The notes under the pieces: generated by a model
What the model was told of the DNA's origin: nothing
The model's database searches: none
Seen by the model: only the letters and a program-made list of their open reading frames with translations
Source of the DNA: Eukaryota sp. GEM-RC1
Taxonomy: Eukaryota
Length of the DNA: 64,000 bases
Assembly (NCBI GenBank): GCA_040285855.1
Contig: JAUFOQ010000016.1
Coordinates: 2,914,001 to 2,978,000, forward strand
Direction of reading: 5' to 3'
In this document: piece by piece, positions 33,370 to 63,648 of the stretch
Numbering within the stretch: position 1 is the stretch's first letter
How the letters are laid out: every line of letters starts with the position of its first letter
Translations under genes and position numbers: made by a program

Positions 33370-33865
33370 TGGACCAAAAAGAAGTGATCTCCATAATCCG
33401 TGGCTTAAATCGAGTCAATTATTAATGGATTTTACTACAGTAAATGTTTGTAACAACTCTTGTGTTAGTAGGATATTAGATTCTTCTTTTAATTTTTCAA
33501 CAGCTGCTGAAAAGCTCAAACACTCCAAGTATGACTCTCAAGTAGAAGAATTAAATAGAAACTCATATTCCAAAATTTATGTTTCAACCTTTTGCTGTTT
33601 CTCTTTTTGGTTCTATCAGTTCTGCTGGTGATCAATTTTTCAAGGATATCGAAGAACTGTGTAAATATATCGGAATATGCCTTTCTATTTCTCTCGTTTA
33701 ATTGAGAAATTGTACAAGTTTGGTGTGAAAGTTAATGTTGAAAAACGTAATCTTTTAACGGGTGGTGATGAAGTTGTTTGAATTTAATCTTAGTATTACA
33801 TGTTTTTGTTTGTTTTTACAATTTTATAGCTTTGTAGGAATGTTTCCTTATTGGGTACCGTATAT
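33370..33865 (+). mobile_element. Chimeric family A retroelement 3' fragment at the duplication junction
   Basis: The 5' part equals 35820-35960. The 3' part equals 31060-31415, including a diagnostic internal deletion. Confidence 0.85.
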
Positions 33866-34324
33866 AGTACTGTAGTAGGTAGAATAAATGGAACTTGAGT
33901 TTATGATCATACTAGTAAACAACAAACAAGAAACCAAATACACAAACGATTTACACAGTTTAAACAAATAGTTATTGTAATAATTTGGGGCCGGCTTATA
34001 AGCTGGCCGGCCAGAAGGGAATGAGTGGGCCGAAAGTAAAAAGTGTGCCGCCATCCCTACTTGAAATCAAACATTGTGCAAAATGTATTCTCTAATCGAA
34101 AGTTCTGTCAATAATTTTTTTATTTAATCCAGGGAATCATCACTGTGATGCCGGTCTACTTCTGAAACTACATCTTCCGTTTCTCAATAAATTTTTAAAA
34201 TGGACAACTTAACACCATTGAGAGGTAAATTAACCAGAGTACATTAGAATGAATAAATAAACACCAGGACGATACATTCCACAAGGATTTCGAACTGGTT
34301 CAAAAGTGACGTCATCATAGAGAA

Positions 34325-35543: not shown

Positions 35544-35819
35544 ACTAGTATAGTATAGTATTCATTACAGATCCAATTTGATCGGAGTTAGTCTGGAAAT
35601 AGGAATTCAGTTTCTCTTTTCGAGAAACACAAGTTTACAGACAAACTGAATGTTCAATAATGACTTACGAGCTCAAATAGTACAGCAATTGAAGTGGTGC
35701 ACATTAGCAGTGTCTCTCATAAATAAATATTAATTATATTTATTAAAAAACGCCTTTAATTTTCTAAAGTTACGTCACTTTGATGAATGTTTGTTCTTCA
35801 TCTTGTTAGTGAAATACGT

Positions 35820-36366
35820 TGGACCAAAAAGAAGTGATCTCCATAATCCGTGGCTTAAATCGAGTCAATTATTAATGGATTTTACTACAGTAAATGTTTG
35901 TAACAACTCTTGTGTTAGTAGGATATTAGATTCTTCTTTTAATTTTTCAACAGCTGCTGAAAGGCTCAAAAAAACCAAGTATGACTCTCACATAGAAGAA
36001 TTAAATCGAAACTCATATTCCAAATTTGTGTTTCAACCTTTTGTTGTTTCTCTTTTTGGGTCGATTAGTCCTGCTGGTGATCAATTTTTCAAAGATTTCG
36101 AAGAACTGTGTAAAGAAAAGAAGCGCAAGTTTAGGATGGCTGAATGGAAAAACCGTATAGTGTTTTCCATATATCGGAATATGCATGTCTATTTTTCTCT
36201 CGATTAATTGAGAAATTGTACAAGTTTTGTGTGAATGTTAATGTTGAAAAACGTAATTTTTTACCGGATGGTGATGAAGGCGTTTGGATTTAATCTTAGT
36301 GTTATTTGTTTGATTTTACAATTTCACAGTTATGTAGGAATGTTACCTTATTGGGTACCGAATAAA
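35820..36366 (+). mobile_element. 5'-truncated family A retroelement (RLE C-terminus + 3' tail)
   Basis: KRSD...MDFTTVNV...K.TKY...QPFVVSLFG...WKNRIVFSIYR, ending ccttattgggtaccgaataaa. Confidence 0.85.
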
Positions 36367-36799
36367 GTTTTAGATAAATATTGGTTAGTTCTATTTAGTT
36401 TCTATCTGTCAATAATGAGACAATCATAGCTCTAGGACTTTTAATGAAACATCAAATGTTCCTCAGACTCGTCATCGTCCTAAAGGAGCCAAATAGATGT
36501 TGTAGTGAATGCAACTCTGATTGAGGATACTTATGTGCAGTAATGCCGATTGCACAACAACAGCATAAATTGAGTTTCCGTTGTATTAGGGATGACAAAT
36601 CGTGTCGAGTACAGATTTGAAAAGTAGTGGGTAACAATTTCCTTATGTTCAGACATAAAGAAGACTCAGAAAGAATTGTACTGTCCTCAGCAACATCCAA
36701 TCGATCACTTTACAGTGTAATTCTTCCATCACAACCAGGCCCTCTCTTACGATAATTTAAAATAATTTAAACGTCAAAAGGTGCCACAAATAATTATAA

Positions 36800-37590
36800 T
36801 TACAACAAAATAAAACACAAATTTAAAGATCATGAATGGCTTGTTAACATGAGACTTCGTTTAGGTTTTTGGCCATTTGGTTTGTTACAGAACAGCACGT
36901 GTATCTGTAAAAAAAATTGGGCTAGCTTTCATCATTTGGTCAATTGTTCAAAGTTCATATATCGTCGTTCAATTTTGCACAACAGTCTTCGAGATACATG
37001 TTTGGAAATGTTTAAGGCGAATGGTATCCATGGCATAGTCGAACCATTACTTTCTCATCTTTCAGATCACTTTGATTCTACTCAGAAACGTGGTGATTTT
37101 ATTGGCCCTTGGTTGTCATGCCAAGAAATTGTTGTTGATTTTACGACCGTTGATCCTTGCAATGCTTCAGCTATTGCCAACATTTTACTTCAAATGATCC
37201 GCTGAAAGACGCTGAGAACGCCAAAGTGTCTAAGTACGGACATCAAGTTGCTGCATTGAATTCACCAAGACACAATATTATCGTCTTTCAGCCTTTTGCA
37301 GTTTCATTGTACGGAAATTTCGGTTCTTCTACCAAAGAGTTTTTAAATTTATTTGAAAATTTGTGTTCAGAATTTGGCAAGAAGTTTAAAAGATCGTACT
37401 GGAAGAGTAAATTTGCTTTTTCGATTTTTAGGTCTATGTATAGATATGTTGATTCCATTTTGTCCAAGTTGTTTGGAGGCAACTACTGTTCGGAATTAGG
37501 TTGTTCGTGTGATCATTTGTTTTAATAGTCCATATCTATTTGTTGTTTTCTTGTTGTGTGTTTTTCTCCACACATAAATCCGTTTTTAAA
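36800..37590 (+). mobile_element. 5'-truncated family B RLE retroelement
   Basis: MRLRLG.WP, CICK..H.VNC, HNSLRD, KRGD, VVDFTTVD, K.SKY and PFAVSLYG, with one frameshift. Confidence 0.88.
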
Positions 37591-37959
37591 CACAAATAGA
37601 AACAAACTATTATAGTATATTTCATAGTTCAAGTCATGGTAAGAAAACACCACATTCATCAACGTCTACTAATCCGTTTCAGGGAGTGTTGACAGTTTCT
37701 GAAAAGAGACCATTTTTTCGGTTATATTGATGTTGGTGACAGGACCTTTTGAGACGCGTTCATTTGATTGTGATCTAAAAGAGAGAGTTGCACTTGGTTT
37801 GAGAATACCGGATCTCAAGTGTATTGATTTGTTACTTGTTTGTTTTTACAATTTCATAGTTTTGTAGGAAGGTTACCTTATTGGGTGCCGAATAAAGTTT
37901 TCTCAGTGTATGGATAAAGGAAAAACATTTTATTTATATTTATATTTATTTTGTCCTGG

Positions 37960-39620
37960 AGTTTATTATAAATGTAATAAATCAAACAACTAAAATTTGA
38001 TGTCATTAAAACAACACCCGTCGCTATCAAACCTTACAACAGCTTTGTCCTCATAAAAGGCACTCACTGCTAATAAAGCTTTGGAGATGATTAGGGGAAC
38101 TGTTTTAAAAACAGTAAAAACGATCCGATTCAACCATAACTTATGATCAAAACGTTTGTTCATCCTATTTTTTATGATTTTTCCGAAATCGTTTAAAAAA
38201 TTCAATGCACTTTTCCTAAACGTCCGTAAATTGAAACGGCAAAAGGGCATAATTCGTACTCAAAATGTTTTACATGTTTTAAAGCCATCAATGGTTTTCT
38301 GTACTTATCCTGTTTGGCCTGTTCAGAAATGTCTAAAGGAGAAGTTTCAGACGAAGCGTTCTTTAAAGATGTCTTTTTAGAAACATCCACTGACACTACA
38401 TCAACAACAAACAATTTGTCTGAAGAAGAAGGAACAACAACATCTGCTCTCCGTTTACCAAAAAATTGGTTCTGTTTTTCGACATTACAATTATTACTTG
38501 GTTCTAAAGATCTTAAAAGTGGTTCAACAAATGACTCAATTTTGTAAGACTTACACATAGCATGTATTTGATCTCTTACAGCATCATGCATACACGTTCG
38601 ATAAGTTATGTAACGATTACAACTTAACAGATGAGAAAACGTAGATTGTTTTCCACAGCTACTTGAAGATCATTTGGCAAATTATGTGGCCATAAATAAC
38701 AACGAAGTCTCATTGTAGTGGTCCATTGATGATCATTTAATAACAGACCATTTACTTGTGGACTTTGATTAATTCATGCCACAACAGAACTCTCCTTTAA
38801 ATCAATTAAAAATTAGCCAAAGCTGGATTTTTTTCCTCAGCCAAGCTAAGACGGACTGTAAAATTTAAACTTTCAAAATATTTTAATAAATGATTTTGTA
38901 GCTTTTTTAAAGCAAACTTTAAAGACAAAATGTTTCGACATGGAATTTCATTGAAAACAAGACGACCACGACTCAGGAGAAAGATTTCCTATTTCACCAC
39001 AGAGATGATTAAGATAAAAGCTGCAAGTACTTTCAAGAAGAGTAGTTCTTGATGGATATCGATTACAAAACTCGAATACAAAATGTTTGCCACCACCAAT
39101 CAAAGCTGCTTTAGTCCACCATTTAGAAGATGTAAATCCCAAACCTCCGAAATATGGACTGGAAAATGTGTGGTTATTTAAAATGTTGGGTTTGACTTGA
39201 AGAAACAATAAAAAAAAAGTCTGTGCGAATTTTGTTAAAAGCTCTACAGAAATCATACGATAACTCAGGAGCAAGGGGCCTTAAAAGATGAGTAATTTTA
39301 CCAGAATAACAAATTTAGAGCATGAAGAATTTTTTAAATGTTTTTCAATTTCAAGAACTTTAATCTTATCCAACTCTTGTTGAATTGAATTCAAATAATC
39401 ATCAAGGTTTTTGACAATATCTTCCTTTCTACCAAAAAAACAACAACCAAGAAATATGAAACTTGAACCAGAATAACTAATGAAAGGGACTTCAATTGAA
39501 CGAATTGTTAATAACGTTGGTTCTTTTCCTATAACGAAACATTTTTGAATGTTTAAATTTAAACCAATCTCTTCACACAAAGTGGCAGCTTCTGCAGAAA
39601 TTGCTTTTATAGTCTCAAAT
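37960..39620 (-). mobile_element. Degenerate RLE retroelement (family C): RT C-terminus to endonuclease
   Basis: IGLNLNIQKC, FLGC, GGLG, HDAVRD, RRADVV, VVDVV, K.DKY and PFAVSIYGRLG across broken ORFs. Confidence 0.88.
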
Positions 39621-40441
39621 TTTTTTTACCTAAAATTATGAGGCAACCTCAATATACAACTAAATATACATAAATTCACAAAACTGACTAAATGCACAAA
39701 AGATAAACATGACAATTTTTGATGACGTTTGGAGTTTCCTTCCTCCTGTTCTGTAAGTCTGCTTCTTCTATAATTGTCTTTCTTATGTATGTCCCCCTTA
39801 GCAACTGTTCCTCCCTTGTTTGTGTTTGATACTAGAGACGAGCTACGGACTTTGTGAGGCAACAGGACACAATAGACGATCTTGCCCTCAAAAAAATGAT
39901 GTCCCTGAACCTCCTAGACAAGTTGCAAGAACAGAAGATTAGGGTATAGCTAGAGTGTCATGTCACTTCTCTTCTTCTAGTTCAAATAAAAAACTTCTCT
40001 GTCATTCTATTTAACCATAACACACACATCGTTCACTTGAAGATGAAAACACATGCTTCTGGATAACAAGCTTGTTGGTGGCATCTCTAAGCCCAAAAGT
40101 TGTTTAAGAAGAACACTTCCTCCACATTGCCATGGGAGATGCTCTTCGGGGATACATCTCTGACTACGTTTCTTCGCAACTGTTGTTTTGGATGTTCTAC
40201 ACCCTAACTTCATTCAGAGATGAGATTCTACTTGCCATTTTGCTGTGGAAAAGTGTTGTTAATCACTTGTGATTGCACTTCAGCAATCACATATTTATGA
40301 CCTCATGGAAAAATTTTGTCGCACGACAAAAAATTGTCGTGTTGGTATTTTGTATATTTATCCATTTTGTATATTTAGTTTTTTTCAAATAATAATTTTA
40401 TGTTATAAATTAACGAAATACAAAGAACTAGTACTTAAAAG

Positions 40442-41547
40442 CATAGTTGCAAAATACACGGACAAAAAAATAATACAATACAGAATACAAAAAATACAGA
40501 ATACAAAAATACAATACAGATACAGAATACAAATACAATACAGAATACTGTATTAAGTGTATTTTTGTCTTGTATATCGCAAGTATTTAACTAACTGTAT
40601 TGAGTCCAACCACTGCAAACGTGATTGATCTTCAGGGTTATCATGGTTCAACTCTTCAGTATACAGTCTTAGACTTCTTTTCATTAATTACCCCAATTGT
40701 TCTTTCGATTCTAAAATGCACCGACGGTTCAAATGTTCATTTAGTCCACGTTTAAAGAACTGACGTGGAGATATACAGTTATACAATGTGACGTTGGACA
40801 CTTTTTGTCCCGTACATTTGTTGTAAATCGTCTTAATATACCGCTTGTAGGTAAATATGTTTAAACTCGAAATCATAGTCCCCAAAGACCACACGTACAT
40901 CTTCAAAACAGGATCAAACTGAGTGTCGTGTAGCTCGTCTCATCAGGGTTTTGAATCTGCATCACTGACTGACAGTAGTGAAGCTACTGTAGATTGCACA
41001 ACTTTACATCATTTGGTGTTTTTCAATTCTTGGGGACGAACATTATTAAGCGTTTCTAAATTTTTGTTACTTGACTTTGATCGGTGTTTCACTTTTTAGT
41101 CATCTAGCATACGCCGTTGACGTACTGTACTGGAACGTTTAGAAAATTCAGCAGACAATTGTACAGGTATTTCTGCAAGTTTGAAAAATAATACATGACC
41201 CAATTGTACCATACAATGGTATAATTGATCGGAACGATCCGCTTTTGAGTGTTTTCCTCATTTACTTCAGTCATTGTCATCAACTAAAGGGATTTTAGGG
41301 CAGGGAAAAAATACAAAAAATACAAATACAAATACACTTTTGCAGAAAAAAATACAATACATAATACAGAAAAAATACAGAATACAAAAAATACTGTATT
41401 TTGTATTTTGCAACTATGGATTTTAGGGCAGGGAAAAAATACAAAAAATACAAATACAAATACACTTTTGCAGAAAAAAATACAATACATAATACAGAAA
41501 AAATACAGAATACAAAAAAATACTGTATTTTGTATTTTGCAACTATG
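40442..41547. mobile_element. Non-autonomous hAT element
   Basis: TIR CATAGTTGCAAAATAC and exact 8-bp TSD cttaaaag. AATAC subterminal repeats. Internal BED-finger-like relic VW...C...LNEHLNRRC at 40688-40906 (minus strand). Confidence 0.88.
41291..41547. repeat. Two tandem copies (~128 bp) of the hAT element right end
   Basis: gattttagggcagggaaaaaatac...gtattttgcaactatg occurs at 41291 and 41419. Confidence 0.92.
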
Positions 41548-41561
41548 CTTAAAAGAAGAGA

Positions 41562-42430
41562 TGTTTATTCGGCACCCAATAAGGTAACCTTCCTACAAAC
41601 TATGAAATTGTAAAAACAAACAAATAATACTAAGATTAAATCCAAACGACTTCATCACCACCCGGTAAAAGATTACGTTTATCAACATTAACCTTCACAC
41701 CAAACTTGTACAATTTCTCAATTAATCTAGAGAAATAGAAAGGCATATTCCGATATATGGAAAACACTATACGGTTTTTCCATTCAGCCATTCTAAACTT
41801 ACGCTTCTTTTCTTTACACAATTCTTCGAAATCCTTGGAAAATTGATCACCAGCAGGACTAATAGATCCAAGAAGAGAAACAGCAAAAGGTTGAAACACA
41901 AATTTGGAATATGAGTTTCTATTTAATTCTTCTACTTGAGAGTCATACTTGGAGTGTTTGAGCTTTTCAGCTGTTGTTAATGGATTAAAAGAAGAATCTA
42001 ATATCCTACTAACACAAGATTTGTTACATACATCTACTGTAGTAAAATCCATTAATGATTGACTCGATTTAAGCCACGGAGTATGTAGATCCCCTCTTTT
42101 TGATCAGTAAATTCATTTTCTGAAAGATGATTCAAAACTGGTTCAACTTTAGAGTGAAAACCATGTGCTTTAAACATGGAATAACAAGAATCACGTACAC
42201 TATCATGAATTACTGCACGGAGATGAATAAAATAACGACAATTAATTAAATGACGGAAAACACCATTAGCTCCACAAGAGCACGTTGAATAGTTTAATAA
42301 ATTTGCAGGCCAAATAGCCAAACGAAGACGCATATTGATCATCCAAGCTTCATCAGATAGATGTAATCCATACACTTTTGGAATTTGAGAAATAAATCCA
42401 GACGGTCCACTATTACAAAGATCAATTAAA
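41562..42430 (-). mobile_element. 5'-truncated family A RLE retroelement
   Basis: ORFs 42052-42375 and 41636-42052 are close relatives of 30653-31330 and carry the same 3' tail. Confidence 0.9.
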
Positions 42431-42589
42431 AAAAAGATATTTAAAAGACTGTATATTTAGTTGTATATTTAGGTTGCCTCAAAATTATTTATTCTAAAAG
42501 TAATAGACAACAACACTACAGTGTACATACATCTAATAATCAATATCCTCAAAGTCCAGATTGCCTAACTGGAAATTTTCACCTACCTT

Positions 42590-43390
42590 ATCTTCATAAT
42601 GACTGCCAAGAGATAATAAAGCACTAGATACAGAAGTCACCATACCTTTAAAGATAGCAAACACGATTCGATTGTTCCAAAATCTAAGATCAAAAGTCCT
42701 AGATGATTTTTTCTTTTACAATCTTCACAAAGATTTCAAGTAATGATGTTGCAGATTCACCTAAAGAACCGTACAGTGAAAACACAAAAGGGTACAACAA
42801 GTAATTTGAGTGTGAAGCCGAATTCAATAATTTCAATTTAGCACAATATTTTTGCATTTTAAATTTTTCACCAATCAGCAAGGGGTTTTTAGCAGTAGAT
42901 TTAGCAAGTTTCTTGTTGGAATCATTACAAACATCGATAGACATAACATCAGCAATAATGAAAGATCCATCAAGACCAGGAAATATGACATCCCCACGGC
43001 TATTTCCAAACGATTTGTCAACATCTGTATCATCAAACAAACCAGCCAGACTGATAGTTTCAAAAGGTGCAATAAAAGTAATTTCATCCATATAAACCAC
43101 AATTTCCAAATCCTTACACTTGGATTTAAGATAGTTGAGGATGGGGTGAATAGCAAGGCAGAAGAAAAAAAGGACCAAAAGGATCGCCTTGTTTAACACC
43201 GGTTAATGAAGAAAGATTAGCCGAGTTCTAGACCAAATCAGACGAATTACCATAATAAGTATGAAAAAAAGATTCCAATTCTGGAAAATGTTCTTGTAAT
43301 TGTGGCAAAATAGCAGCACGTTTAGCAGAGTTGAATGCGTTTTTAAAGTCAAGATTATAAACAAAAACTTTGATAAGAATATATAAAATA
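42590..43390 (-). mobile_element. Internally deleted RLE retroelement (family D): RT core joined to RLE
   Basis: LDFKNAFNS, GVKQGDPFGP and VYMDE (from YxDD) are followed directly by SRGDVI...ADV...K..KY...PFVFSLYG. Confidence 0.85.
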
Positions 43391-45248: not shown

Positions 45249-46138
45249 CAGGGATGCGGAAAAAAATATTTATTTAAATAAATTATTGTTCACGACGAAA
45301 ATAAATATATTGTTATTGTTGTGGCCAACAATAAATATATGTATTGGTATTGTCAAGTTTGGAAATAAAAAAATATATTTATTGGCAATATTTCTACGCA
45401 ATCCGATGACTTTTTTTTGTGGTCTATTCGCCATCATCCGTAAAATCTCCTTCATTGTCCAACAACCAAGTCAAGGGTTAGTATTAAGATTTTTGCGAAC
45501 AGTATCTTCACCGTAGTTTAGAATTATACATCAATAAAAGTTGTTTTTCCAGACTTGATGTGTGTAGTCTTTTGCGAAGACTTTCAGCAGTCAAGTTAGC
45601 ACGACTGAATAGTCCTTCGATTTGCTTGGATGGGCCTGTTTTGAGTGTAAAATCAATGTAGTGAGATTTGGATTAATGAGAATCAGTGACAGTTTCCAAA
45701 CGCTCTGCTAGTGTCCCACGCAAAAAGTCCTTCACTGAATGTTTCTCACTCTTACGGTCATCAGTTCTTGATTGCCGTTTAGACTTTGTTGAACTTCATC
45801 AGTTCAAAAGCCAAACAGTCAACAATTTGACGTAAACAAATAGTATGATCTATTGCCTAGGTTGTTTTTTTTACTAAAGTGAAAGTTCGTCAGAGGACAA
45901 CTGCACCCACAACACATCTTGTTTACTCCAAAAATGGATGCAAAATTGAATATAACATCAAACAAATGGATGATTTTAGGGATGGAAAATATTGCCACAA
46001 TAAACAATATTATTGCAATACTATTGTATATTGCTGGGACTCACAATAAATATATTGCTATTGTTTTGACCAACAATCAATATATTTTTAATATTTATTG
46101 CAATAAATAAAATAACAATATATTTTTCCGCATCCCTG
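45249..46138. mobile_element. Non-autonomous hAT-like TIR element
   Basis: TIR CAGGGATGCGGAAAAA. TSD gtatagga / gtatatga (7 of 8 match). Confidence 0.85.
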
Positions 46139-46489: not shown

Positions 46490-47500
46490 AGGTTCGGGTT
46501 TAGGTTTCAAACCAAACCTTTTTTAATAAACCTAGCTGAATCTTAACCTTTTTAATAAAACCAAACCAAACCTAAACCTTTTTTAATAAAACCAAACCAA
46601 ACCTAAACCCTTTTCAATAAAACCAAACCTAAACCTTTAGCTTTAGAACTGTAGGAAAATGAAACACATTTAATTTCAATAACCCTCTTACTCTAACATT
46701 ATATATGAACGATCTTAACGCTTCTATTGACGAGAACTCGGTATCCAAGCATCTTCAGTTTGTTGCGATCAGGTTTTTTCTTCTACTGAACGTACAGTTA
46801 CAGAAAATAGAGCTTCTCTGTCTGATGAAAGTATCCAAGCACTTGTCAGTCTTAAGGATTGGAGACGATTTTTTGAAAAGGAAAAATAGCACCACTAGTA
46901 GTTGTTTGTGATACTCGAGCATTAATAATAAAGCTTATTTAGTACCAGGGCCTACGGAAAAATATTTGTATTTAAATATTTACAATAAATAATGATATTT
47001 TATTTATTTTTTCAAGTTGGGTTTCTCCATTATTTATTTTGTGAAAACAGAAAATAAAAAATTTTTTTACATTTTTTGCTCTCTCACACAAAACCTGGAG
47101 AGGTACTAGTGTTCGTGTTAGATCACGTCTGTGAAGGTGTTGTAGCATCCTTGTTTCCTTTGAATAAATAATTTAAATAATTGCAATTATTTATTTCCTT
47201 CATCGGCATTAACTCATATTTATTTATTCAAGAAAAAGTTTGCCATATTTTATTTAAATATTTTTCCGTAGGCCCTGTTTAGTACTACCGTAAGAACAAC
47301 TTTATTTTGACAGTGTTCCACTAAACTACAGTGTATTTTCAGTTCATAATACATATCGGGTTTACTAGGTTTGAACCTAAACCTTTTTTTACAAAACCTA
47401 GCTGAACCTAAACCTAAAACTTAAAAACCTAGTGAAACCTAATCCCATTTTTGGAGAAAACCAAACCAAACCTAAACCAGGTTTGGGGTTTGAAACTCTT
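46490..47500 (+). mobile_element. hAT transposon relic with dimerization-domain remnant (46731-46889) and AAACC subterminal repeats; boundaries approximate
   Basis: The frame from 46731 reads RELGIQASSVCCDQVFSSTERTVTENRASLSDESIQALVSLKDW, matching the hAT C-terminal consensus. aaaccaaacctaaacc arrays lie at 46510-46640 and 47375-47480. Confidence 0.8.
46946..47277. mobile_element. hAT-like MITE nested in the relic
   Basis: TIR CAGGGCCTACGGAAAAA and exact 8-bp TSD tttagtac. Confidence 0.92.
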
Positions 47501-52592: not shown

Positions 52593-55236
52593 TTATTTCC
52601 TCAGCACATTCTTCCACTGTTGAACTTTCCTTCTACCAAAGGTCAATTCCTTCCCATAAGGAAGAAGTAAATGATCTTCAATTTCACAACTAGAACAGAA
52701 CATTTCCTGAATCTCCGTCAGCTTTGACTTTAAACTGTGTTCCTTCCTTCCACGAACATCTAGCCATGACAACAACTCACAAAAGACTTCTTCTGAAGTC
52801 ACAACCTGCCACGTTGACTCTTCTTCCCCTTTGTTTTCTAACCACACGCAATTAGGCGAGGAAAAGAAGAACCAATAAACCAAACCATTTCTATCAACCC
52901 CCAGAGGTTCTGTACGGATGACTGCTCTGTGTTCTAACTCTGTGAATTTAGAACTTGTAGCAGCCATTTTTTTACGATGCCGCTCAATTTCATCAGATTT
53001 GGCGGCAAGCAGCGAATCTTTGCGCCTTTCTAACCGGTCAAGTTTCCCCTGAGCTCTTTTCTGCTCAACACCTTCCAAATTGGAAATCTCGTTTTTAAGA
53101 GCCAGAATCGCTTCTTTTACCTCTTTAATCTTTTGAGAAGCTTCCTTTGAAGACAACTTAATCATAGCATCTCGATGACGTTTCTTTTCAGCTTGCTCCA
53201 TCTCAGTCTTGCTCTTTTTGATATCCATGACGTCAACAAACGTATTATCCACGTAATTTTGAACTGATTCACTCTGCAAACATAAATCCACTAGATATTC
53301 GACAAGTTCAATTCGTTGATCAACTTTTAAAGCAATAAAAGAGTTAAAATTTCTCACAGCATCACTCGCATTGTAAGAAACATTACCAAACACCAAAACT
53401 TCTTCTTCTTCTGGAAGTTCTTCAGATGACAGTGAATGTTCCGCCTCACTTTCAGAGTGTGCCGACTCCTCATCACTTAGATTTGGTCGTTTGACTTCTG
53501 GTTCAGTCGCTACCTTTCTGAGCTGAGCACGTGTCATGACGCGAGGTTTGGGAGTTTCTTTTGCACTCTTCTTTTCTTGAAGGTGTGAAAACGGCAGGTT
53601 TCTTGGAAAGTCTAGATGAACGTCGTAGTACAGGCCTTTCATCTTCGGAGGAGCTCTCATCTGAATCACTGAGCTCTTCTGATGACGTCATCATGTCCTG
53701 TGGAGGATTTTCCATAGCCTCTTCCCCGTAACTCACATCTTCCTCTTGTTCCTCATCTTCTTTCTCTTCATTAGAATCTTCATCTGAACCAACTGACTGT
53801 TCTTCTTCAACAGATGAATCGACATCTCCACTGTCAACATGTTCAGTCACTTCTTCCTCCGGTGATTCTTCTTCAACTTCACTATCTTCTTTTTCCTCTT
53901 CAACAACTTCTTCCTCCATCTGTTCCTCTTCAACAACTTCTTCCTCCACTACTTCCTCTTCAACCACTTCCGAGGCCTCCTGGATAGCTTGAACAAGCAC
54001 AGTGTTAAGTTCCTGAGCCTCTTCCTCATCGAACTCCTTGTACAACTTCCTCAGATTCTTAGCCAGTACCTCCACCCAATTACCTGGCGAAGGAGAGAAT
54101 CTCTTACCAAAAGATTGTATGATTAATGAAATAAAAACTTCATCAATTATAGTGCAATTTAGACTTCCCAAGTCTTCAGGAGACTTAACTGAATCATCAA
54201 GAAATGAATCAACAAGAGAAGAGAAAGAAATGGGTGAGAGGGATAAAAGTTTGGAAAATGAAGAAATGAATTCCGAGAGCTCTAGTAATGACGTGACATG
54301 ATCGGAATCGAGGTCAAAAACGTCATCGGGAGTCTCCTTGACAGGAAAACTTGCCACTTTTGGTGGAGGTTGCCCATCAAAAGATTGTGTGTGATCAGAA
54401 ATCTCATCGTCATCAATTGGAAATGATCTCCGAATGATTGGCTTTGATTGCGTTTGATGTGCAAAATCAGTGATTTTTGATTGATTCAATGATTTCTTTT
54501 GCTTTACAACTGGAACGTCATCATCAATAGAGATCACCTCACCTTCCCTTCCATTATTGGCAGGTGGACTATCAGGAACGTGAAGATTCTTCAAAACGCT
54601 TGGTAAAACCTTAAAATACCCACATGATTTCGTAGATATCTGTTTGAGTATCGTACGTAGTATAGTTTTGGTCAGATCCTTTCTTCTTTTAACACTTTCT
54701 TTATTCAGAAGAAGATCAATACTTCCATCCTCGTGTACTGTCCCGCTGGCCTCAGCTGAGCTTACAAGGAAAGCGGGGGCATTGCAGATGGTAACTAGAC
54801 TTTTGGAAGGAGGAAGGCTTTTAGCAAAGGTACCAATGAGAGGACGGGTTGAGTGGGGTATGTAACACCAGACTTCTTCACCGGGAAGAAGGAGATGGTC
54901 GAGAACAGTGGTGATGGTAGTGAGAAGTTCATCTAGTTTTCCTTTGAAGTTGTGGGTGAGGGATGTGATGAATTGGAAAACAGAATAAGGTAGACATAGT
55001 CTAGACTTGAGGTTTTGTTGAGCTTGTTGAAAGGAAGTGAAGTTGGTACCACCTAGAGAAGCAGTCCATACAGCAGACGCATAGAGTCTTAAAGTGGAAA
55101 TATAGGCTTCATAATCAATAAAGATTTCACCAGTCAGCTGGTTGGTAAAGTACTCCGTACCTGGTGAAAGAATAGGGGTAGGAGCAGGAGCATAAGGCTC
55201 TCCTTTGAGGTACGGAAATACTTGAAGTGGAGGCAT
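52593..55236 (-). CDS. WAC/DDT/WHIM-WSD chromatin remodelling subunit (ACF1/BAZ1A/Itc1-like); +1 shift at ~53575
   Basis: TGEIF.DYEAY.....LY...VWT (WAC), LLELSEFISSFSKLL.LSP (DDT), an acidic tract, RTEPLGVDRNG.VYWFF and WLDVRGRKE..LK (WSD). Confidence 0.88.
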
Positions 55237-55499
55237 TGGTATTATTTCTGGAATTCGTTTCAGTCAGGTTATTTTTGATTCACTGACTTATTTGTACAGA
55301 GCTCAGTTTTTTGATTCACGTGTTCCGAATCTCTACATACGTAACAAATTATATTCAAGGATTTGACCATCATCGTCAAATGGGTGTAGACAAAAATTAT
55401 TTCAGAAACAGTCTCAAGGTTTAATAGGTAGGTACACCCGAAGATTCTTAGATAGTGTTTGAATCTAGATGTCTCATCTACTACTAGTAGATGATGTAA

Positions 55500-55664
55500 A
55501 ATTCTGAATTCCACTCTGTGTATTAATATTTCATTTCAAATGCATTTCTACTCAGTCCGAGGACTGTTTTCACACATCTTCCTTAATTACTCTACAAAAT
55601 CCGAAGGCAATACAGTATACATCTCTGCATACTCCCTCCGGGGAAAGCTATACTACGTTACTAA
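55500..55664 (-). ncRNA. Candidate Fanzor omega-RNA scaffold/guide region
   Basis: Lies immediately 3' of the Fanzor stop. Several hairpins on the minus strand: TTTCCC-cgga-GGGAG, ATGCAG...CTGTAT, C-TTCG-G and CAGTC-ctcg-GACTG. The call is inferred from position; boundaries are unknown. Confidence 0.45.
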
Positions 55665-58600
55665 CTACGAGAGATATTCAGGTCTTCCTCTCCCTTCTCT
55701 ATACCCATCTACTATTCTCAACATATTCAAACACGCAAGCTGATTACGATTCCAATACTTTCTCTCACTTGATCCTCTACAATTCTCGCTTCGACACTCA
55801 AGTAGACCATGACAAAGCACTTTTGGAGTTTTTTTCTCTTCTGTAGGGTCTTGGATTCTCGATCTTATGGAACTTCTTCACCTCACTTTCACAATCTGGG
55901 CAGCAACTGGACGTTTTCTTTTCATTCAATAAAACGACTTCAAATCCATTTCTTCTCAAGAAAGACCGCCATCCGATTCCTCTTGTCGGTCTGTGATGTT
56001 TCAAATTCACTTGACCATTTGCCCCAAAATCACCCATACAGATCAGTAGCTCTTCTCTTCTTCGTCCAAAAGTCGATTCGAGTGACTTCAACAACCAGGA
56101 CTCTACTTTCTGCTTATGGATGTAGGAACGCATTTTTTGGATGCGCCATAAGGCAGAACAGTAAAACCAAGCGGTTGACGTCACTTGTTTCATTTTGGCC
56201 TGGACCCAAGCTTCGAGATCAGCAAACGTGGCAGATTTTGGACTTAATCCTGAAAGCAAGCTATCAGTTTCTTCAATTGTGAGCGGTGGAGTACTTTCAG
56301 AATCTTGATTTGATCTGTTTCTTGATGGTCTAACTTTGAACTTTCTTCTGGCACCTTTTAGCAGGTGTTGTTGCTTTCTTGCTACCACAGTCCATTTGCA
56401 TTGTGTCAGTCGCAGCCAATTACACTTGTTTTCTTGAATTTGTTCTTCATTTCTTCCACCAAAATAAAGTAGATCCCTTTTCCAGGGTCACAGACGACTA
56501 CTTTTTTTGTTGTAAATTTTTCTGCTCTCAAGTCTTTACAATAAACTTCTTTAATCTTTCCTTGTAAATCATCCTTACCTCTTTTTTCACCAGCAAAGTC
56601 ACGCCTAACTAACTCAATTGAACAGTTTTGACCGTCACTGAGGATAATGTTGTTGAACACATAATCCTTCTTTTTGAATTCTTTTAAATCGAAGTTTACA
56701 AACATTTTCCAAAAATCATGTTGGTCTTTTGGTTTGAACTTGGTCACCTCAGCCTGGTTGTTCATTAACTTCAGATCCTTGGTTTTCTTGTTTTGCCTGA
56801 CGATACTCCACAAAGTTCTAGTATCAATAGGAAAGTAGCCTGGGATTACCGTGGTTACAGCAGGAAACCAGTGAAAAGCCGCTTCTTCTTTCTCCTTCAC
56901 ATAACGATTCATAGTTATAGCTGCCGGCATGAATAATTGAGGCTTTTTTTCGAGTTCCAAAATTTTAGTAAATGGTCGAAGCACTCTTAATTCAAAAGGA
57001 GGTGATCTCTGCAAAATTTCAAATTTTTCAACGACATACGGGTAAATAAAGGCATCGTATAAAAAGTCTTGTTCGTGAGGTCTCATTCCTTTTCCCCCTG
57101 CTTTATCCTTCCAATCTTCTTCAAACTTTTCTAGGCAAAATTGATTTGAAAGTAACAAGTTGAAGTTATCGACAGATTCAGCAGTAAAAATGTCTTTAAT
57201 CTGTCGAAGAGCAAAACGATACAAAGTTAAAGTTTGTTGACGATCAGGTCGTTCTTCTCTTGGCAGCTCTTTAATTAAATTTGAAATTTCTTCTTCAGAC
57301 TGCTTTTTTCCAAAATATACGTTAATGAAACGATTAATATGTTTTTCAAAGTGGAGTTTCAAGTTGTTGTTAATGTTACACAGGAGTACTGGAGCAATGT
57401 ATTCTGGTGGTCTAGAGAAGCCTTGAGGAGGAAACATTGGAAAGTTATGGCCTTCATTTGCTTCTAACTGAATACGATAGCCCTTGTGAATTGAGTTGCT
57501 GTCGAATTGTGCTTCTCCCATGACAAATCGTTCTAAGTCCGCATCAATTGCACTACTGGGTCGTTTATAGGGCTGACCATAAAATTGGGCACAAAGATAA
57601 TTTATTCGAGTCATTACAGACGTAATCATTTGTTCAGTAATTTCAGGTAACGCTTCTCCACGTTCAAATCTTGCTGATAAAAACAATTGCAGGCATTGTA
57701 GGGTATGGCGACGAAGTTCGTGAAATTGAGGTGCTAGCTGCACAATGTTTTCAAAGACATCACGATGCTTCAAAATTCGTGGAAGAGTAGACTTTACCAT
57801 CCTATAAGTTGGAAGAATAAATTTTTCTTTCTGGAATAGCATACAAAGTTTTAAAGTTAAGTTGGCATGTTGATAATTGTAATCAACTAAGAGAGAGACC
57901 AGTGTACTTTTACACCAACAATCGATGGGCAAAAGATTTCCAAGTTCTTCCTTTTTAAGTTTGAGACAAAATTCGTGTATCAGATTTCGTGTAAGAGATG
58001 CTAAATCATTTCCAAATTTCATTGTGAGAAAACGTTTTGCGAACAATAAAGTATCAAGTATCAAGTATCCGTGTTTATTTTTAACAACTTCACGCCAGTT
58101 TTTAGATAAAAGATTAAGGTTGGATTCTTGGAAATTAACAGGCCATGGGAACTGATAAAACTGGAAACGCTTTTCCAAAACTTTGAAGTCAAATCCAATA
58201 ATATTGTGACCAGTAATGAAATTTGGCTGGTAATCTTGAATTACGTCCATCAATATATGGAGCAGGACCAACTCATTGGGCACAACATAGATTTCAGTTC
58301 TTGGGGATAAACTGCATTCAATTGGAGAAGGTAGGTTTGTTGCACAAAGGTTGACACAGATAATAATTGATTTTTCTTCGTAAAAATTGTCTTCATTAAA
58401 ACGGCCAAAAATTAATGCAACTGACATAACTTTTTGGCTAGAAATCCATCGATCATGTTCTTCTGAGTTCATCTTTTTCAGCTTCAGGGATTCCTTTCCT
58501 CGAAGCTTACTTAATTCCCTCCGTAATAGCTGTTGGAATTTCATCATCATGATGCATTGTCTCCAGGTCAATAGACATAATTTTTGGAAGAGCATAAGCA

Positions 58601-58946
58601 TTAGGGTGTTTTTGAGCACATCCGAATTCAATCAAATTCTGTTTTTCGTTGTTGTCATGTGGCTTAATTTTCTTCAAAGCTTTGAGACAAGATTTCTTAG
58701 CAGGAAAAACTCTATTAGACAGGCGTTGTCCATTAATTTTCAAGGGAGCTCTCCGTGATTTGGCTTTAACTTGAGCTTTTTTGGCAACTCTTGCTAAAAT
58801 TTCGAGATTTGACATTGGAGGACTAGAACTACTATCAACTCGACTTTTTTTTAACAGGGGGGAACAATGGAAGTCGAATCATCACGTCGAATAAAAGGAA
58901 GACTCAATCTTGTACCGATGGGATCAGAATTGGGATTAGATTGTGG
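55665..58946 (-). CDS. PolB-type 3'-5' exonuclease domain fused to Fanzor1 (TnpB-like RNA-guided RuvC protein); homopolymer indels at ~58855, ~58518, ~56478, ~55832
   Basis: Exo motifs: IMSIDLET, NE..LL...PNFITGHNIIGFD, ILDTL and YNYQHA. Fanzor1 motifs: VKSTL..IL, NINNNL..HF, FP......YFPIDT, F...ILSDG..CSI, VCDPGK(R)DLLY, ICMGD, PTRGIG, LNEKKTSSCCPDC, HGLLEC...C, WNRN..AC.NM and GRPEYL. Confidence 0.88.
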
Positions 58947-58985
58947 ACCTGGATTGGATTCCACATCACCATCAGATGTAAGATC
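58944..58985 (-). other. 2A/StopGo ribosome-skipping peptide DLTSDGDVESNPG|P
   Basis: Exact match to the (G)D[V/I]ExNPGP consensus. Same strand as the Exo-Fanzor ORF and directly upstream of it. Confidence 0.8.
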
Positions 58986-59485
58986 AATTTTGAACTGCAG
59001 TCTACAATCAAAACTGACAGAAATTTGCAAAAACGACACTTCAATAAAATTTCACCACCACCACCAAAACCACCACCACCACCGATCCACTGAATTTTAG
59101 AAGGAGGCAAGTTTGGGGGCTGGAAAGCAGTGTGTTGCCCTGGTGGTTCTATCACCATGCTGGGCATGTAAAAATGATAGGCCTGACTGCCAAAAACAAC
59201 ACACATACTCCCATAAAAAACCCTCGACTTCGAAAAAATAAAAAATTTGGATTGAATTGGATCAATGACCAAAAATGCCTTCCTTGGGGTTTTGCTTGAA
59301 CAATGATGCCTTTGATTAGCATATTGCCGCCCGGTCCCACCCAGGCTGTATGGATACAAGATATCTACAGAAGTTGCTTCTGTAGAATTCCACCTGATTT
59401 GATAGGATGACTTTCCCACCAAAAACAGGCCTCTCATAGCCGTCGAATCAATGAACATAGACATGTGAGCAAAAAAATGGACCAT
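58947..59485 (-). CDS. Unknown ~180-aa leader with Gly-rich patch, probably ending at the 2A site
   Basis: ATG-started ORF 58904-59485 joins the 2A frame through a single missing base in GAAATTTTATT (~59047). No family recognised. Confidence 0.45.
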
Positions 59486-60610
59486 TTTGTGGGTTGTTGG
59501 TATTTATAGATGTGTCTACAGTGTCATGTCAGTCAAGACATTTATTGACGATTGTCTTCATTTTTCACTTTTCAGTGTCCTCTACATGGACAATTGACGA
59601 TGAATTTGCTCCTTTCAGTTGTTCTTTAAACAATTCACATCTTTATTTTCTTCACACTTTCCTTCTGAAGATGATGTATAAAGATTCGTATTGGTTTTCT
59701 AGACACACTTTACACAAAATCACGCTACAAATGTCCCACTTCCTTTCTTCTTCTGTTCTTATCCTTTGTTTTGATATAAATAAAAGTATAATTGGGCGCG
59801 GACACAATTTGGTCTCAACGGCTTCCGTAGAGACACGTTTTGCTGGAGGAAGGAGATACCAAGAACATTGATAGAGCCCATGTTCCCTCTCAAGTCTCAG
59901 TCTTTCAACTTACATCACTCAGTCAACTCTCGTCTTTCCGATTCATCAACAAACATGTAACATTCCCTTTTCAATATAGATTTCTCTTCTCTTAGTGTTA
60001 CCACTCTTGCTTTGCTCTGTATCAATCTCATGCTATAAGTCAGAAGATGCTCCAGAATCATAGTCAATTCTGATGCTTATTTATCTTCATCAATAAAGCA
60101 AACAACTTTTCTACTTTTTGTGCTAACTTCTTCAAATGGACAAAACAAGAAAAAAAATTCTCAGTTTAGACACCTCACCTATAGTAGATGAGGGACGAAG
60201 TCTGATTCTTCCTGAAAGAGTTTTGTTCCTTACAGTTTGCTTCCGAGATCTCAGAAATCTTTTATCGTTTCAAGTCTTCTATTTCGCTCAGAAGATCTAC
60301 CCTTCTCAAGATCTACCCTCTCTAAATCCCCTGCTTTCATGTCTTCAAGACTGAGAGCAACCAACCATTCCCCCCCTCTCTTCAATACGTCCTTCAAGGA
60401 GATTTATGCTCATCGTAATTCCATGTTCAATGATATTACAAACAAAGTCAATGAGATTCAAGAAGATGGTGCAACAGAAACAGACAAGCTCTCGAGTACC
60501 TTGATCAGATTGATGTATATCTTTCTCAGGAACAGAAGAGATGTGAGGATGATGATTTAGATATTGATGAAGGTGTTTGTAATGATCATTCTTATTGTTT
60601 TAGTTCCCAT

Positions 60611-61160
60611 TCAGCTGTAGACTTGACAAAACTGACACTTACTCACACTCTTCTTCTTGGGAACCTGATCTGTAATCCCACCATCCTCGATAGTTATTGT
60701 TTGAGATTTTGGTCTCTCGAGGACAGCAGGTCTACCTTGACCTTGGATAATTCCATTTACAATGTTATAAATGTTAATAGCAGAGTTGAAGTCTCTATTC
60801 CAGAGGACATGACATTTAGCACACTGAACTAAGCCCCATGGTGAGACTTTGTTGCTCTTCAACCTTGCTTTCATGAATGGCAACTGTTTGGTCCATTCAT
60901 CTTCAAAATTACGTTTCACAACATTGTCTAATTGATTGTGTTCCATAATTTTTTTTTTCAATTTCTTCTCCTCCTTCTGTAACTTCTTCTTCCACAGAGG
61001 ATCAATGACTTTGACAAAGTCAGGATTGGAACAGATACCTTCCTGGTTTTCAGCAGCACAAGCAGAGCAACATTTGCTTGTCATAAATTCATCAACTAAG
61101 AAAACTTTAAATCCAAATTTTCTTAGTAAGTTTCAAAGAGTAGCGCCTTTTACTGTATTC
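60611..61160 (-). pseudogene. 5'-truncated second Fanzor1 (RuvC-II, Zn finger, RuvC-III)
   Basis: TVKGATL*NLLRKFGFKVFLVDEFMTSKCCSAC...WGLVQCAKCHVLWNRDFNSAINI...GRPAVL. Contains an in-frame TGA, and no N-terminal half is visible. Confidence 0.85.
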
Positions 61161-61773
61161 CCGATTGTTCAATTTGTTTGAAGTGAATGAGATTTATGAT
61201 TGTGCTGCAGATTGTGACAAGGAGTTTGTGAGTTTCATTGATTCGTTGCTTAAGTATAAAGAACAGTTGTATTTTATAACAAATAGCAATGAGGAGATTA
61301 CATTCGACATATAGAGAACACAAATCGGGGTGTTCTACTTCTACGAGGAACATCAGCAGTGGAGGGAGGATGAGGATTACCTTGGATTTAGTGAAACAGA
61401 AGCAGAAGGTACCTTGTCTTCAGATAGAATGGCATCAACGAGGGCTAGGAGAGAGATCTCATGTTTGATTTGTAAGATCAAGGGGGTGACTTTAAAAGAC
61501 TCGGATATGTGTTGAAGTGCTCGAAAGTAGTCCAAGGACAAGACAGGATACATTGCTTGTCATCAAGCTCAATCTCAGCACCAACATCACGTTTTACAAA
61601 GACATATAATTTGACATATGAGACGATAGAAAGCTGATGATGGTAGAATAAGCTGCTAAGAATCAGCTAAGAACCAGCATATTCCATACAGTTGAGGTAG
61701 ATATATAAATTATAATGAAAGGAAAGTTTCCCTGCACAATCTGCATCTTAAACATCACCACTTCACACACTCA

Positions 61774-63648
61774 ATGTCCATTATCAACACACTTACAGAC
61801 GAACAGGCTCAAGTGTTCCAAGCTATTACTCATGCAAGACCTTCTAAGCGTCGAAATTTCTTTATTACTGGTGGTGCCGGATCGGGCAAGTCTTACCTAC
61901 TGTACTGTCTTAAACAGTGGTGGTCTAATGCGGGTTCCAAGCTAATGAGACCCAATGGCCATGTCTTTTTTACTGCTACTACTGGTGTTGCTTCCACTGT
62001 CTTTGGTGGTCAAACCCTACACTCTCTCTTTGGTTATAATTTTATCCGTAATGAAAAACCAATAGCTGATGTCATTCGCTCTATGCCTTCAAGTGTTAAG
62101 TCTGTTTTACGAACTATTAGTGCCCGAAATTCAATGCTTGTTATTGATGAAATTTCAATGTTGACTGCTGAACTATTCAACAGAGCATCTGATATATTTA
62201 AAGATTTACTAAAGTCTCAGTTACCATTTGGTGGTCTTCAAGTTGTAATTTTTGGTGATTTTTTGCAACTTGCACCAATTGTAAAGTCTGACTCAAACAC
62301 ACGTACTGTTCTTCAACTTTCAGACTTTACGTTTTCATCACAGTCTTGGAAGGACTTGAATTTAAATTTTATTGAATTATCTGGAAGTATCCGCCAACAA
62401 AATGATGTCAATTTTTATAATTTTTTGAATGAACTACGTCTCGGACTTTTTGATGACTATATGAAACATATTTTATTGAAACATAAGTCACTAGCCAAAA
62501 ATATTGAAAGTCCAACCAAATTATTTGCTAGAAACAAGGATGTCGCCGACGAAAATTTAAAGCAATTTGATATATTATGTGAACAAGGCAATGAAAATGT
62601 TGAATTTCATTCCAATGAAACCTTAATTAAATCAGAAATTGGTAAAAGTTGGGCATTTGGTAAGCCTAATGAGGAACAAATGGAAAAGGCTGTTGGTTTA
62701 AATTTAAAAAAATTATCAAGTAGGCTAAACGATTTTGCCGAACAAAAATTTCACTGTGTCGTCGGGGGTTTGGTAATGTTTACCCAAAACAAACCAGATC
62801 TGGGCCTAGTAAATGGGTCAAAAGGCAAAATTATTGATTTTTCAGAGACTTCACATTTCATTAATGTAAGATTCGGGAGGGACGAAGAACCAATCAAAAT
62901 TATTCCGACTAAATTTGAAATTGAGGTGTTGAATGAGAAGAAAAAGCCTGTAATTATAGCTTCCGGATTGCAATATCCTCTTCGTCCTTGTTGGGCAATA
63001 ACAGTCCATAGATCTCAGGGACTAACAATTGAAGGAATTGAAGTTTCATTAAATTTTTGGGAATATGCCCAATTGTACGTTACATTGAGTAGGGTGAAGA
63101 ACTGGAACTCAATTAAAATTTTAGATATTTCTTCTAGATTTCCCAAACCAAGAATTGATCTTTATCAGTGGTATTATTCCACTTTTCACCCCTGTCGACC
63201 GGTTACTAAACCTCTTTATCCTTTGCCATTAGAAGATGAAAGAATTGTTAGAAATTGGCCTTCTGTGTTGAAAACTTTTGATGAATTTTCGTCCAATATT
63301 ATTTCTATTGTTGGTGAAAGTATGGAAACTGTTGATGTTCTTGATCCAGTCAATGAAGAAATTGAGGAAGATTTGGTGGAAGATGTTCCAAAAATTCAAA
63401 ATTTAAATACCACTTCTGATTCAGTTTTAGAATTGTTCGATAATGAAGTTGTTGTCTCTGGAAGTGATAGTGGAGATGATGAAACTGATGATGATGACGA
63501 TGCGTCGTCCAGTATGAATGATTTTGTTGTGAATGATGACGATGAGTGTCTCAATAATCAAAGTGTAAGTGCCATCAATTCTGATTTTATTTTTAACAAA
63601 CCTGTGCCAAAACTGAAAAAACAACAGTCACTACTTTGCCTAAATTGA
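61774..63648 (+). CDS. PIF1-family SF1B DNA helicase with acidic tail (may continue past a frameshift at ~63620)
   Basis: FFITGGAGSGKS, TATTGVAS..GGQTLHS, VIDEISM, PFGGLQV..FGDFLQLAPI, IRQ, LVNGSKG, QYPL..WAITVHRSQGLT and QLYVTLSRV. Confidence 0.95.
   Translation: MSIINTLTDEQAQVFQAITHARPSKRRNFFITGGAGSGKSYLLYCLKQWWSNAGSKLMRPNGHVFFTATTGVASTVFGGQTLHSLFGYNFIRNEKPIADVIRSMPSSVKSVLRTISARNSMLVIDEISMLTAELFNRASDIFKDLLKSQLPFGGLQVVIFGDFLQLAPIVKSDSNTRTVLQLSDFTFSSQSWKDLNLNFIELSGSIRQQNDVNFYNFLNELRLGLFDDYMKHILLKHKSLAKNIESPTKLFARNKDVADENLKQFDILCEQGNENVEFHSNETLIKSEIGKSWAFGKPNEEQMEKAVGLNLKKLSSRLNDFAEQKFHCVVGGLVMFTQNKPDLGLVNGSKGKIIDFSETSHFINVRFGRDEEPIKIIPTKFEIEVLNEKKKPVIIASGLQYPLRPCWAITVHRSQGLTIEGIEVSLNFWEYAQLYVTLSRVKNWNSIKILDISSRFPKPRIDLYQWYYSTFHPCRPVTKPLYPLPLEDERIVRNWPSVLKTFDEFSSNIISIVGESMETVDVLDPVNEEIEEDLVEDVPKIQNLNTTSDSVLELFDNEVVVSGSDSGDDETDDDDDASSSMNDFVVNDDDECLNNQSVSAINSDFIFNKPVPKLKKQQSLLCLN

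Follow-up and report, generated by a model that had tools for sequence, protein, structure and literature searches.

Motifs of the StopGo (2A) type lead to the skipping of a Gly-Pro bond on eukaryotic ribosomes. In the 2A literature, natural StopGo sequences are placed in RNA viruses and, rarely, in retrotransposons. The closest described systems are the non-LTR retrotransposons L1Tc, Ingi and CR1/Crack/L2, in which, in the available part of PMC3708506, a mobile-element ORF has GD(V/I)ExNPGP close to its N-terminus and before a nuclease, in some cases separated from it by a spacer or an additional domain, and with broken-motif copies, as is the case at the locus described here, which lies in a window of 64,000 nucleotides (the whole stretch of DNA analysed) from Eukaryota sp. 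GEM-RC1. The locus differs from them in its downstream protein, an exonuclease-Fanzor1 instead of APE-RT, in having no linked reverse transcriptase and in its upstream hexapeptide of the DLTxDG class; Pfam scans of the window pieces, family B and P0056 (relatives described below) detected no APE or reverse transcriptase 3′ of the 2A. Among viral StopGo sequences, the comparison is with the DLTxDG class (motif 4 in the part of PMC12846837 available; iflaviruses, picornaviruses) and with class A of PMC12338488, as 13 of 14 residues match many viral motifs. Viral StopGo lies between capsid and replication proteins, whereas here it lies near the start of a nuclear DNA-element gene. By analogy, we propose that the 2A works here like the retrotransposon 2As of PMC3708506 and not like that of a viral capsid-replicase polyprotein; the "virus-style polyprotein" put forward in a first-pass annotation of this DNA was an overstatement, since the leaders are short and unconserved, the pattern of retrotransposon 2As.

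Fanzor1 proteins are described, in the accessible part of PMC13565253, as RNA-guided nucleases that presumably restore their element through homing. Compared with SpuFz1, PpFz1 and GtFz1 (PMC3627910, PMC10432273, PMC10711439), the protein studied here has the same RuvC-I DPG, RuvC-II Glu before a C4 zinc finger and C-terminal WNR(D) motif, and its gene is likewise multicopy, but RD is RN in the window copy. It adds an N-terminal PolB exonuclease, a StopGo peptide and, in one lineage, an Ulp1-like domain, and no transposase was found. With respect to the PolB exonuclease domain (PF03104), ExoI, ExoII and ExoIII are intact in P0056 and family B, there is no polymerase domain and the exonuclease is fused to Fanzor1.

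From comparison of sequences we propose, with a probability of about 0.68, that a multicopy Fanzor1 mobile gene is present here in a copy with broken frames, that its relatives encode leader, StopGo, exonuclease and Fanzor1 in a single frame, and that the ribosome likely skips the Gly-Pro bond. The motif is kept across four divergent Fanzor lineages, which would extend StopGo to the gene of an RNA-guided DNA nuclease; if true, this would be the first StopGo found in a DNA-type mobile element or an RNA-guided nuclease gene within the literature searched, and it would offer a test of why cellular 2As sit near ORF starts, called unclear in PMC12338488. The first-pass annotation knew of no 2A report with a Fanzor, and no description of StopGo with a Fanzor, or of an exonuclease-Fanzor fusion, was found in the open full-text literature searched either. 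The main texts of three recent 2A surveys mention neither Fanzor nor TnpB, and the word "exonuclease" is not in the main text of PMC10711439, PMC10530073 or PMC13565253. The supplementary files of PMC3627910 that were covered contained no 2A motif, those of PMC10530073 none of six ExNPGP words, and NPGP occurred twice in the supplements of PMC10711439 and four times in those of PMC10432273 (part of the files), none of them canonical. At the sequence level, 186 Fanzor1 loci (1.45 Mb, a narrow sample mostly from one giant-virus clade) contained no 2A-like motif, 124 viral 2A loci contained no Fanzor, and the open frame 5′ of the Fanzor start was at most 19 codons in 179 viral and metagenomic Fanzor1 ORFs.

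StopGo motif and reading frames at the locus

The sequence KIDLTSDGDVESNPGP of the first-pass annotation, at 58991-58944 on the minus strand, holds the sole NPGP in a six-frame scan of the 64-kb window. It has the core D(V/I)ExNPGP as DVESNPGP (58967-58944, −), directly preceded by KIDLTSDG. With the window's own residue frequencies, D[VI]ExNPGP is expected 3.2e-5 times in the window, and 5.5e-12 times when DLTxDG is added; a chance origin was ruled out by these expected counts together with the conservation of the motif across lineages. According to the available part of PMC3708506, the 2A core by itself is insufficient for activity. The activity-supporting upstream hexapeptide is present here, DLTSDG belonging to the DLTxDG class. 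In the part of PMC12846837 available, this is one of the upstream classes; it goes together with Asp at p12 and with Ser at p15, both of which the locus motif shares, and includes an assayed example in which skipping was nearly 100%. Thirteen of the last 14 residues were matched by 14 of 139 viral motifs (from 124 viral loci, fetched by motif). The identical 14-mer appears four times in the table of PMC12338488 (three Symbiodinium/dinoflagellate entries and one unclassified, none assayed there), a study in which 14 of 17 assayed class A peptides were active. The motif is thus read as a genuine StopGo-type feature, at which skipping is predicted. The features of the locus are collected in Table 1.

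Table 1. Features of the locus and its surroundings, in window coordinates.
Feature	Position	Strand	Basis or remark
TATA-like box (TATAAATA), 16 nt 5′ of first leader ATG	59501..59508	−	read from sequence; putative promoter
Leader ORF, 199 codons stop to stop	59034..59485	−	sequence and copies; weak codon bias
T5 run, leader/2A frame break	59029..59033	−	read through in 4 named copies (P0048, P0050, P0051, P0052)
StopGo/2A 14-mer DLTSDG-DVESNPGP	58985-58944	−	sequence scan; comparison with viral and published motifs
Predicted skip site	between Gly 58949-58947 and Pro 58946-58944	−	
15 codons after skip site common to family B; end of shared 5′ module	58899..58943	−	tblastn and alignment
C6-TGTT-A8 junction; 2A stop 58853-58851; Exo-Fanzor frame one base away	58845..58862	−	same stop in P0050, P0051
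Basic NLS-like linker (LLKKSRVDSSSSPP), 5′ of first in-frame Exo-Fanzor ATG	58816..58857	−	linker comparison; codon bias p 0.07
PolB-type 3′-5′ exonuclease domain, one break at 58519-58517	57867..58575	−	PF03104 E 1.8e-14; motifs
Fanzor1 domain, breaks at 56481-56478 and 55835-55829	55665..57806	−	profile and structure-sequence matches; motifs
Candidate omega-RNA / right end, short hairpins	55381..55664	−	weak folding signal
ACF1/WSTF-type chromatin gene (WAC, DDT, WHIM1, WSD)	52593-55263	−	starts ~430 nt past Fanzor stop
Internal fragment of second Fanzor1 family	60620..61162	−	RuvC-II and RuvC-III residues intact; one premature stop
Multicopy stand-alone PIF1 helicase, 19 cluster members	61774..63648	+	Pfam; cluster

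As assembled, the 2A lies in a frame of 66 codons (59051-58851, −), which shares 148 nt with the leader frame and 28 nt with the Exo-Fanzor frame, and the motif is out of frame with both, each join being one base short. The first-pass annotation had named a motif that stays out of frame with both neighbours in polished sequence as grounds for giving up its proposal; the motif is out of frame in the assembled window, but relatives such as P0056 read in frame. It had put the upstream break at ~59047, and we located it instead at the T5 run, where the four named copies that read through have ...LKCRFLQ... (LTCRFLQ in P0050). Past the skip site, the continuation QSNPNSDP...IVPP that it described is present, followed by Cys and the stop. 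At the junction, C6 (58862-58857, −), A8 (58852-58845, −), KKSRVDSSSSPPMSNLEIL and ExoI (SIDLET) had been placed correctly, but the frames that it had read across the two runs are not joined as assembled. The three further breaks in the Exo-Fanzor frame are all at short runs.

Counted from the ATG at 59485, the window leader has ~180 aa, close to the ~170 aa first proposed, but the gene models of the named copies are shorter, starting at 59206 or 59167 (88 aa to the skip site in P0052), and codon bias is not significant over the first 93 leader codons (p 0.16). In view of this weak bias and of a fold more stable than that of shuffled sequences (z −3.6 and −3.4, best of 15 windows), the leader's 5′ part, 59480-59301 (−), may be a structured 5′ UTR and not coding sequence. 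A Gly-rich GGT repeat in the leader differs in length between copies by whole codons; a dUTPase-like reading of this Gly stretch was considered by eye and dropped. The leader had no Pfam match and no usable Atlas match, none of 163 candidates among longer proteins was a homologue, four exact variants of the leader start were absent from the protein collection, and the window leader showed no similarity to those of P0056 and P0064. Because leaders measure 42-110 aa in the gene models and are unrelated between lineages, with no detectable similarity, the leader does not appear to be a protein in its own right.

Copies and distant relatives of the leader-2A module

The copies of the element and its distant relatives were compared as protein models, and not as DNA. 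According to the available part of PMC11316075, such assemblies were put together from R9 nanopore reads, corrected with Illumina data, and carry AUGUSTUS models. The Exo-Fanzor forms a cluster of seven members at 90% identity, the six named members of which come from Eukaryota sp. GEM-RC1, and has relatives at 35-39% identity in Eukaryota sp. TZLM1-RC. A search with the 66-aa frame returned three clusters with eight members, seven of them with the motif region. The leader was joined to the motif in all six named copies having leader residues, in four through the T run, in P0047 via a different shift and in P0054 probably via a modelled intron or a deletion; both this P0054 join and the start of P0049 look like modelled introns. 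The 2A core is canonical in five of seven named copies; P0049 has Asn for Asp, a tolerated variant in the part of PMC12846837 available, and P0048 is broken, its Asn being lost.

Fifteen codons past the skip site, the copies diverge into family A (window, P0050, P0051) and family B (P0047, P0048, P0049, P0052, P0054), and the tblastn matches of P0047, P0048, P0052 and P0054 all end at 58899. In family B, the motif is joined to the downstream linker in 5/5 copies, three of which reach the exonuclease and two the Fanzor start. The family B exonuclease is of the PolB type, differs from that of family A and is catalytically complete; the family B C-terminus matched a Fanzor1 N-terminal profile, built solely from viral and metagenomic Fanzor1, with E 2.5e-7 (0 of 2000 shuffles scored as high). 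A profile comparison between the families was collinear across the exonuclease-Fanzor junction and weak (probability 8.5, E 0.004). Fold prediction of family B from three sequences gave a pLDDT of 33 and was set aside, and an Atlas search with its C-terminus was uninformative. Relatives of family A in metagenome or viral contigs were confirmed in 0/90 and 0/218 candidate stretches.

A search with P0054 over 1.84 billion representatives listed 150 matches, 149 of them new. Among the new matches listed, NPGP occurred in three (P0056, P0059 and P0064), all within ten element-type matches, and it was absent from the other 138 exonuclease matches listed. The models of the seven element-type matches without the motif apparently begin within the linker or beyond it, so that they speak neither for nor against its presence. 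P0056 is an unbroken chain of 1,473 aa comprising leader, 2A, linker, exonuclease and complete Fanzor1: a 110-aa leader is followed by NLVLDGDVEANPG and the Pro of the skip site, the 2A ends at 111, PF03104 covers 329-474 and the Fanzor match has E 1e-49. Its catalytic residues are complete (ExoI-III motifs and RuvC Asp, Glu, Asp), which would make it a candidate two-nuclease editor that is directly assayable. Exonuclease fusions have been engineered onto genome editors, and the natural exonuclease-Fanzor1 fusion parallels them. In P0059 and P0064, leaders of 42 and 86 aa precede the motif; in P0059, the 2A is followed by an Ulp1-like domain (E 1.8e-4, above Pfam's cut-off) and then by a degenerate exonuclease, P0064 aligns to P0059 twice, and P0063, a relative of P0059, extends into a weak match to the Fanzor N-terminus (E 0.0016).

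Across the four lineages, the last 14 residues are identical at 9-13 of 14 positions while the 20 residues on either side are identical at only 1-6 of 20, which indicates that the motif itself is under selection. Absence of the motif from homologous loci would have spoken against the first-pass annotation, and instead four divergent lineages keep it. The motif is in frame with both neighbours in P0056, P0059, P0064 and family B, and the downstream join of family A is out of frame in 3/3 copies. P0056 contains, unbroken, the continuous ORF of leader and Exo-Fanzor that had been proposed around the 2A, and P0054 has it as far as the Fanzor start; in family A its downstream join is putative.

An exonuclease tree of 58 segments (13 element-type and 45 of the other 138 matches) placed family B and P0056-P0064 in a 95/98 clade, and family A with its TZLM1-RC relative in a separate 100/90 pair on long branches; it is compatible with a single origin of all element exonucleases. 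Since the exonucleases lie on separate branches, yet leader and 2A are about 90-96% identical between families A and B, the most economical interpretation is an old 2A of the family B clade that reached family A by recombination, the putative exchange point lying 15 codons past the skip site. The Fanzor1 Sola2 families in the available part of PMC3627910 likewise combine near-identical, shared 5′ regions with different Fanzors, and the shared 5′ cassette would show how Fanzor modules get exchanged between elements. P0185 carries another exonuclease and a Fanzor N-terminus (E 4e-4) on a long separate branch, and is possibly a further independent exonuclease-Fanzor fusion.

The family A junction and alternative readings

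All three family A copies that show the junction end in IVPPC-stop. We consider it likely that family A has a continuous or spliced join here, which would originally have been in frame, and that the stop at C6 is a homopolymer indel error, because codon bias and an NLS-like motif are seen around the junction. Codon bias suggests coding sequence both in the A-specific codons before C6 (p 0.04) and in the stretch from the run to the ATG (p 0.07), and among the 57,297 15-mers of the window the one before the ATG scores best against the basic linkers of P0047, P0057 and P0061, anchors that were picked after the likeness had been seen; direct alignment of the A and B linkers was not significant (593/5000 shuffles). 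The 28-nt overlap of the 2A and Exo-Fanzor frames holds C6, one of four C/G runs of at least 6 in 64 kb. Other window genes have 13 frame breaks in 29.3 kb, some of which may be introns. Three of seven C/G runs of at least 5 lay in break zones, which cover 4.4% (p 0.0025; two of six, p 0.025, with a duplicate counted once), the single C/G run of 6 inside other coding spans lay outside them, and A/T runs were not enriched (3/96). The exonuclease break at 58519-58517 is read through in four named copies, and the break after RuvC-I is common to the window and P0014, four TZLM1-RC homologues being continuous there. Across the junction, 31 GT-AG pairs could restore the frame as an intron, none of them supported by named gene models. 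A programmed −1 frameshift was rejected by eye, as no canonical slippery heptamer lies in register.

The strongest competing reading, which we regard as unlikely, accepts the family-level layout but takes the family A stop as real, the module having been acquired from family B in the wrong frame, or an A element having landed in a B remnant. The 2A would then release just a 31-residue tail, and the Exo-Fanzor of family A would be made from the ATG at 58815 by reinitiation, or not at all. This would account for the identical stop in 3/3 copies, for the five other family A models that begin at their own Met (MSNLEIL/MSDLEIL), for the abrupt A/B divergence at 58899 with exonucleases on separate branches, for the protein's own basic stretch after the Exo-Fanzor ATG and for surroundings that are a mosaic of fragments (60620-61162). 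It leaves unexplained the codon bias in the Exo frame and the NLS-like motif 5′ of the ATG, and it fits poorly with a frame overlap that holds one of so few long C/G runs and with the recurrence of other breaks among copies at places where the frame must be continuous.

Less probable still is that what preserves the motif is a ribosome pause or partial skipping instead of clean release. This would throttle a toxic nuclease, or let a hydrophobic leader keep the unskipped form from the nucleus, with mostly leader alone or the fusion as product. In all four lineages, a hydrophobic stretch, mild to strong, lies 20-35 residues before the skip site (Kyte-Doolittle mean 0.5-1.9); the available part of PMC3708506 discusses reduced downstream product with 2A and reports inactive natural variants; and the W-V-(R/K) extension noted for the DLTxDG class in the part of PMC12846837 available is missing from the locus motif. 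However, the full 14-mer fits the class with near-complete skipping in vitro in that same source, most class A peptides were active in PMC12338488, and this reading departs from the preferred one merely in degree. Very improbable is a reading in which the locus would be what remains of an endogenous virus or giant element, with a functional leader protein before the nuclease and with PIF1 and a second Fanzor in the same unit. In its favour, the 14-mer class is common in RNA viruses, a distance of exactly 17 locus tags separates a leader gene from a PIF1 copy twice in named records, between-family pairs no more than 20 tags apart number 5 where 1.8 would be expected (p 0.03; 14/19 PIF1 tags known), and P0059 has its Ulp1-like domain between 2A and exonuclease, but the leaders are short, dissimilar between lineages and matched by nothing in the Pfam, Atlas and protein searches, no family A relative was confirmed in viral or metagenome contigs, 2A and Fanzor did not occur together in the 186 Fanzor1 and 124 viral 2A loci, and no capsid or polymerase match was obtained among 23 window ORFs scanned with Pfam.

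If the locus is a frame-broken copy of a leader-StopGo-exonuclease-Fanzor1 gene, skipping at Gly-Pro would split off a short leader and leave an exonuclease-Fanzor protein that starts with Pro (a predicted chain of ~1,094 aa at the window locus). The leader would be a disposable carrier for the 2A, and skipping would expose, close to the new N-terminus, the basic NLS-like linker; a reduced nuclease output is a further probable effect. Fanzor, loaded with omega-RNA from the 3′ end of the element, would cut target DNA, and the fused 3′-5′ exonuclease would trim the cut ends, so that simple rejoining is avoided and copy-back of the element favoured; alternatively, the exonuclease may serve in RNA 3′-end trimming. 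With odds slightly better than even, we suggest for this protist Fanzor1 lineage that a functional StopGo releases exonuclease-Fanzor from a modular ORF, leader-2A-(Ulp1-like protease)-exonuclease-Fanzor1-(zinc knuckles), that the leader-2A cassette is swapped among divergent nuclease modules and that the exonuclease processes the RNA-guided break.

Nuclease domains and neighbourhood of the window copy

The window exonuclease has ExoI DLE and ExoII N...FD, and its ExoIII Asp is replaced by His, as in 5/5 family A copies including the window; Asp is kept in P0002 and P0003. The set of an active PolB exonuclease (ExoI D-x-E, ExoII D, ExoIII Y-x3-D) is thus incomplete in the window and complete in family B and P0056. 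Kinship of the downstream domain to Fanzor1 was confirmed across the N-terminal and RuvC regions, and its best solved-structure matches were the Parasitella, Spizellomyces and Guillardia Fanzor1. It has the RuvC-I Asp (56489-56487) and the RuvC-II Glu (55923-55921) just 5′ of the C4 zinc finger, and at RuvC-III (55745-55743, −) it has Asn, not Asp, reading WNRNQ, at a position that is Asp in 161/162 viral Fanzor1 ends. The Fanzor1 signature, given in the available parts of PMC3627910 and PMC13565253 as D-X(125,275)-[TS][TS]xx-C4 zinc finger-X(5,50)-RD with Glu shortly before the finger, is present in the window as Asp, Glu, TSS and zinc finger with RN for RD, a degenerate member, and complete in P0056. 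Because of the RuvC-III Asp to Asn and ExoIII Asp to His changes, the window copy probably encodes no working nuclease. The family A C-terminus was compared in the window copy alone; with the RuvC-III Asn, either the whole of family A could be nuclease-dead, and then possibly an RNA-guided binder, or this copy alone. Folding of the candidate omega-RNA gave z −1.63 over 321 nt; of 14 windows of 120 nt tried, the best reached z −2.5 and −3.1. Rfam gave no matches at the locus, the candidate included.

No transposase, terminal repeats, target duplications or element ends were found at the locus, nor any convincing terminal inverted repeats. On the Fanzor-stop side, the element is bounded by the ACF1/WSTF-type gene. 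On the other side, the fragment at 60620-61162 belongs to a 14-member Fanzor1 cluster whose fuller copies (P0019, P0022, P0029) end in two Cys/His zinc knuckles; since it resembles P0056 (E 3e-46) more than it does the Fanzor at 55665-57806, it is probably the C-terminal half of family B. There is a hint that PIF1 is part of a larger composite element, of which the window would hold a compressed form. For a Helitron-borne Fanzor1, PIF1 is present, and no Rep (HUH) match and no termini were identified in the window, which ends at 64000.

Elsewhere in the window, 30644-43202 holds several fragments that, by eye and from translations, resemble the C-terminal endonuclease region of non-LTR retrotransposons. 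Two short MITE-like elements (45249-46138 and 46946-47277) have 22-nt terminal inverted repeats starting from CAGGG (95% and 100% complementary). Near-identical duplicated ORFs at 31875-33086 and 34325-35536 encode a 403-aa membrane-type protein, and the likewise near-identical copies of a duplicated RING-kinase (1-970 and 9116-11153) share a frame break, which lies at a C5 run.
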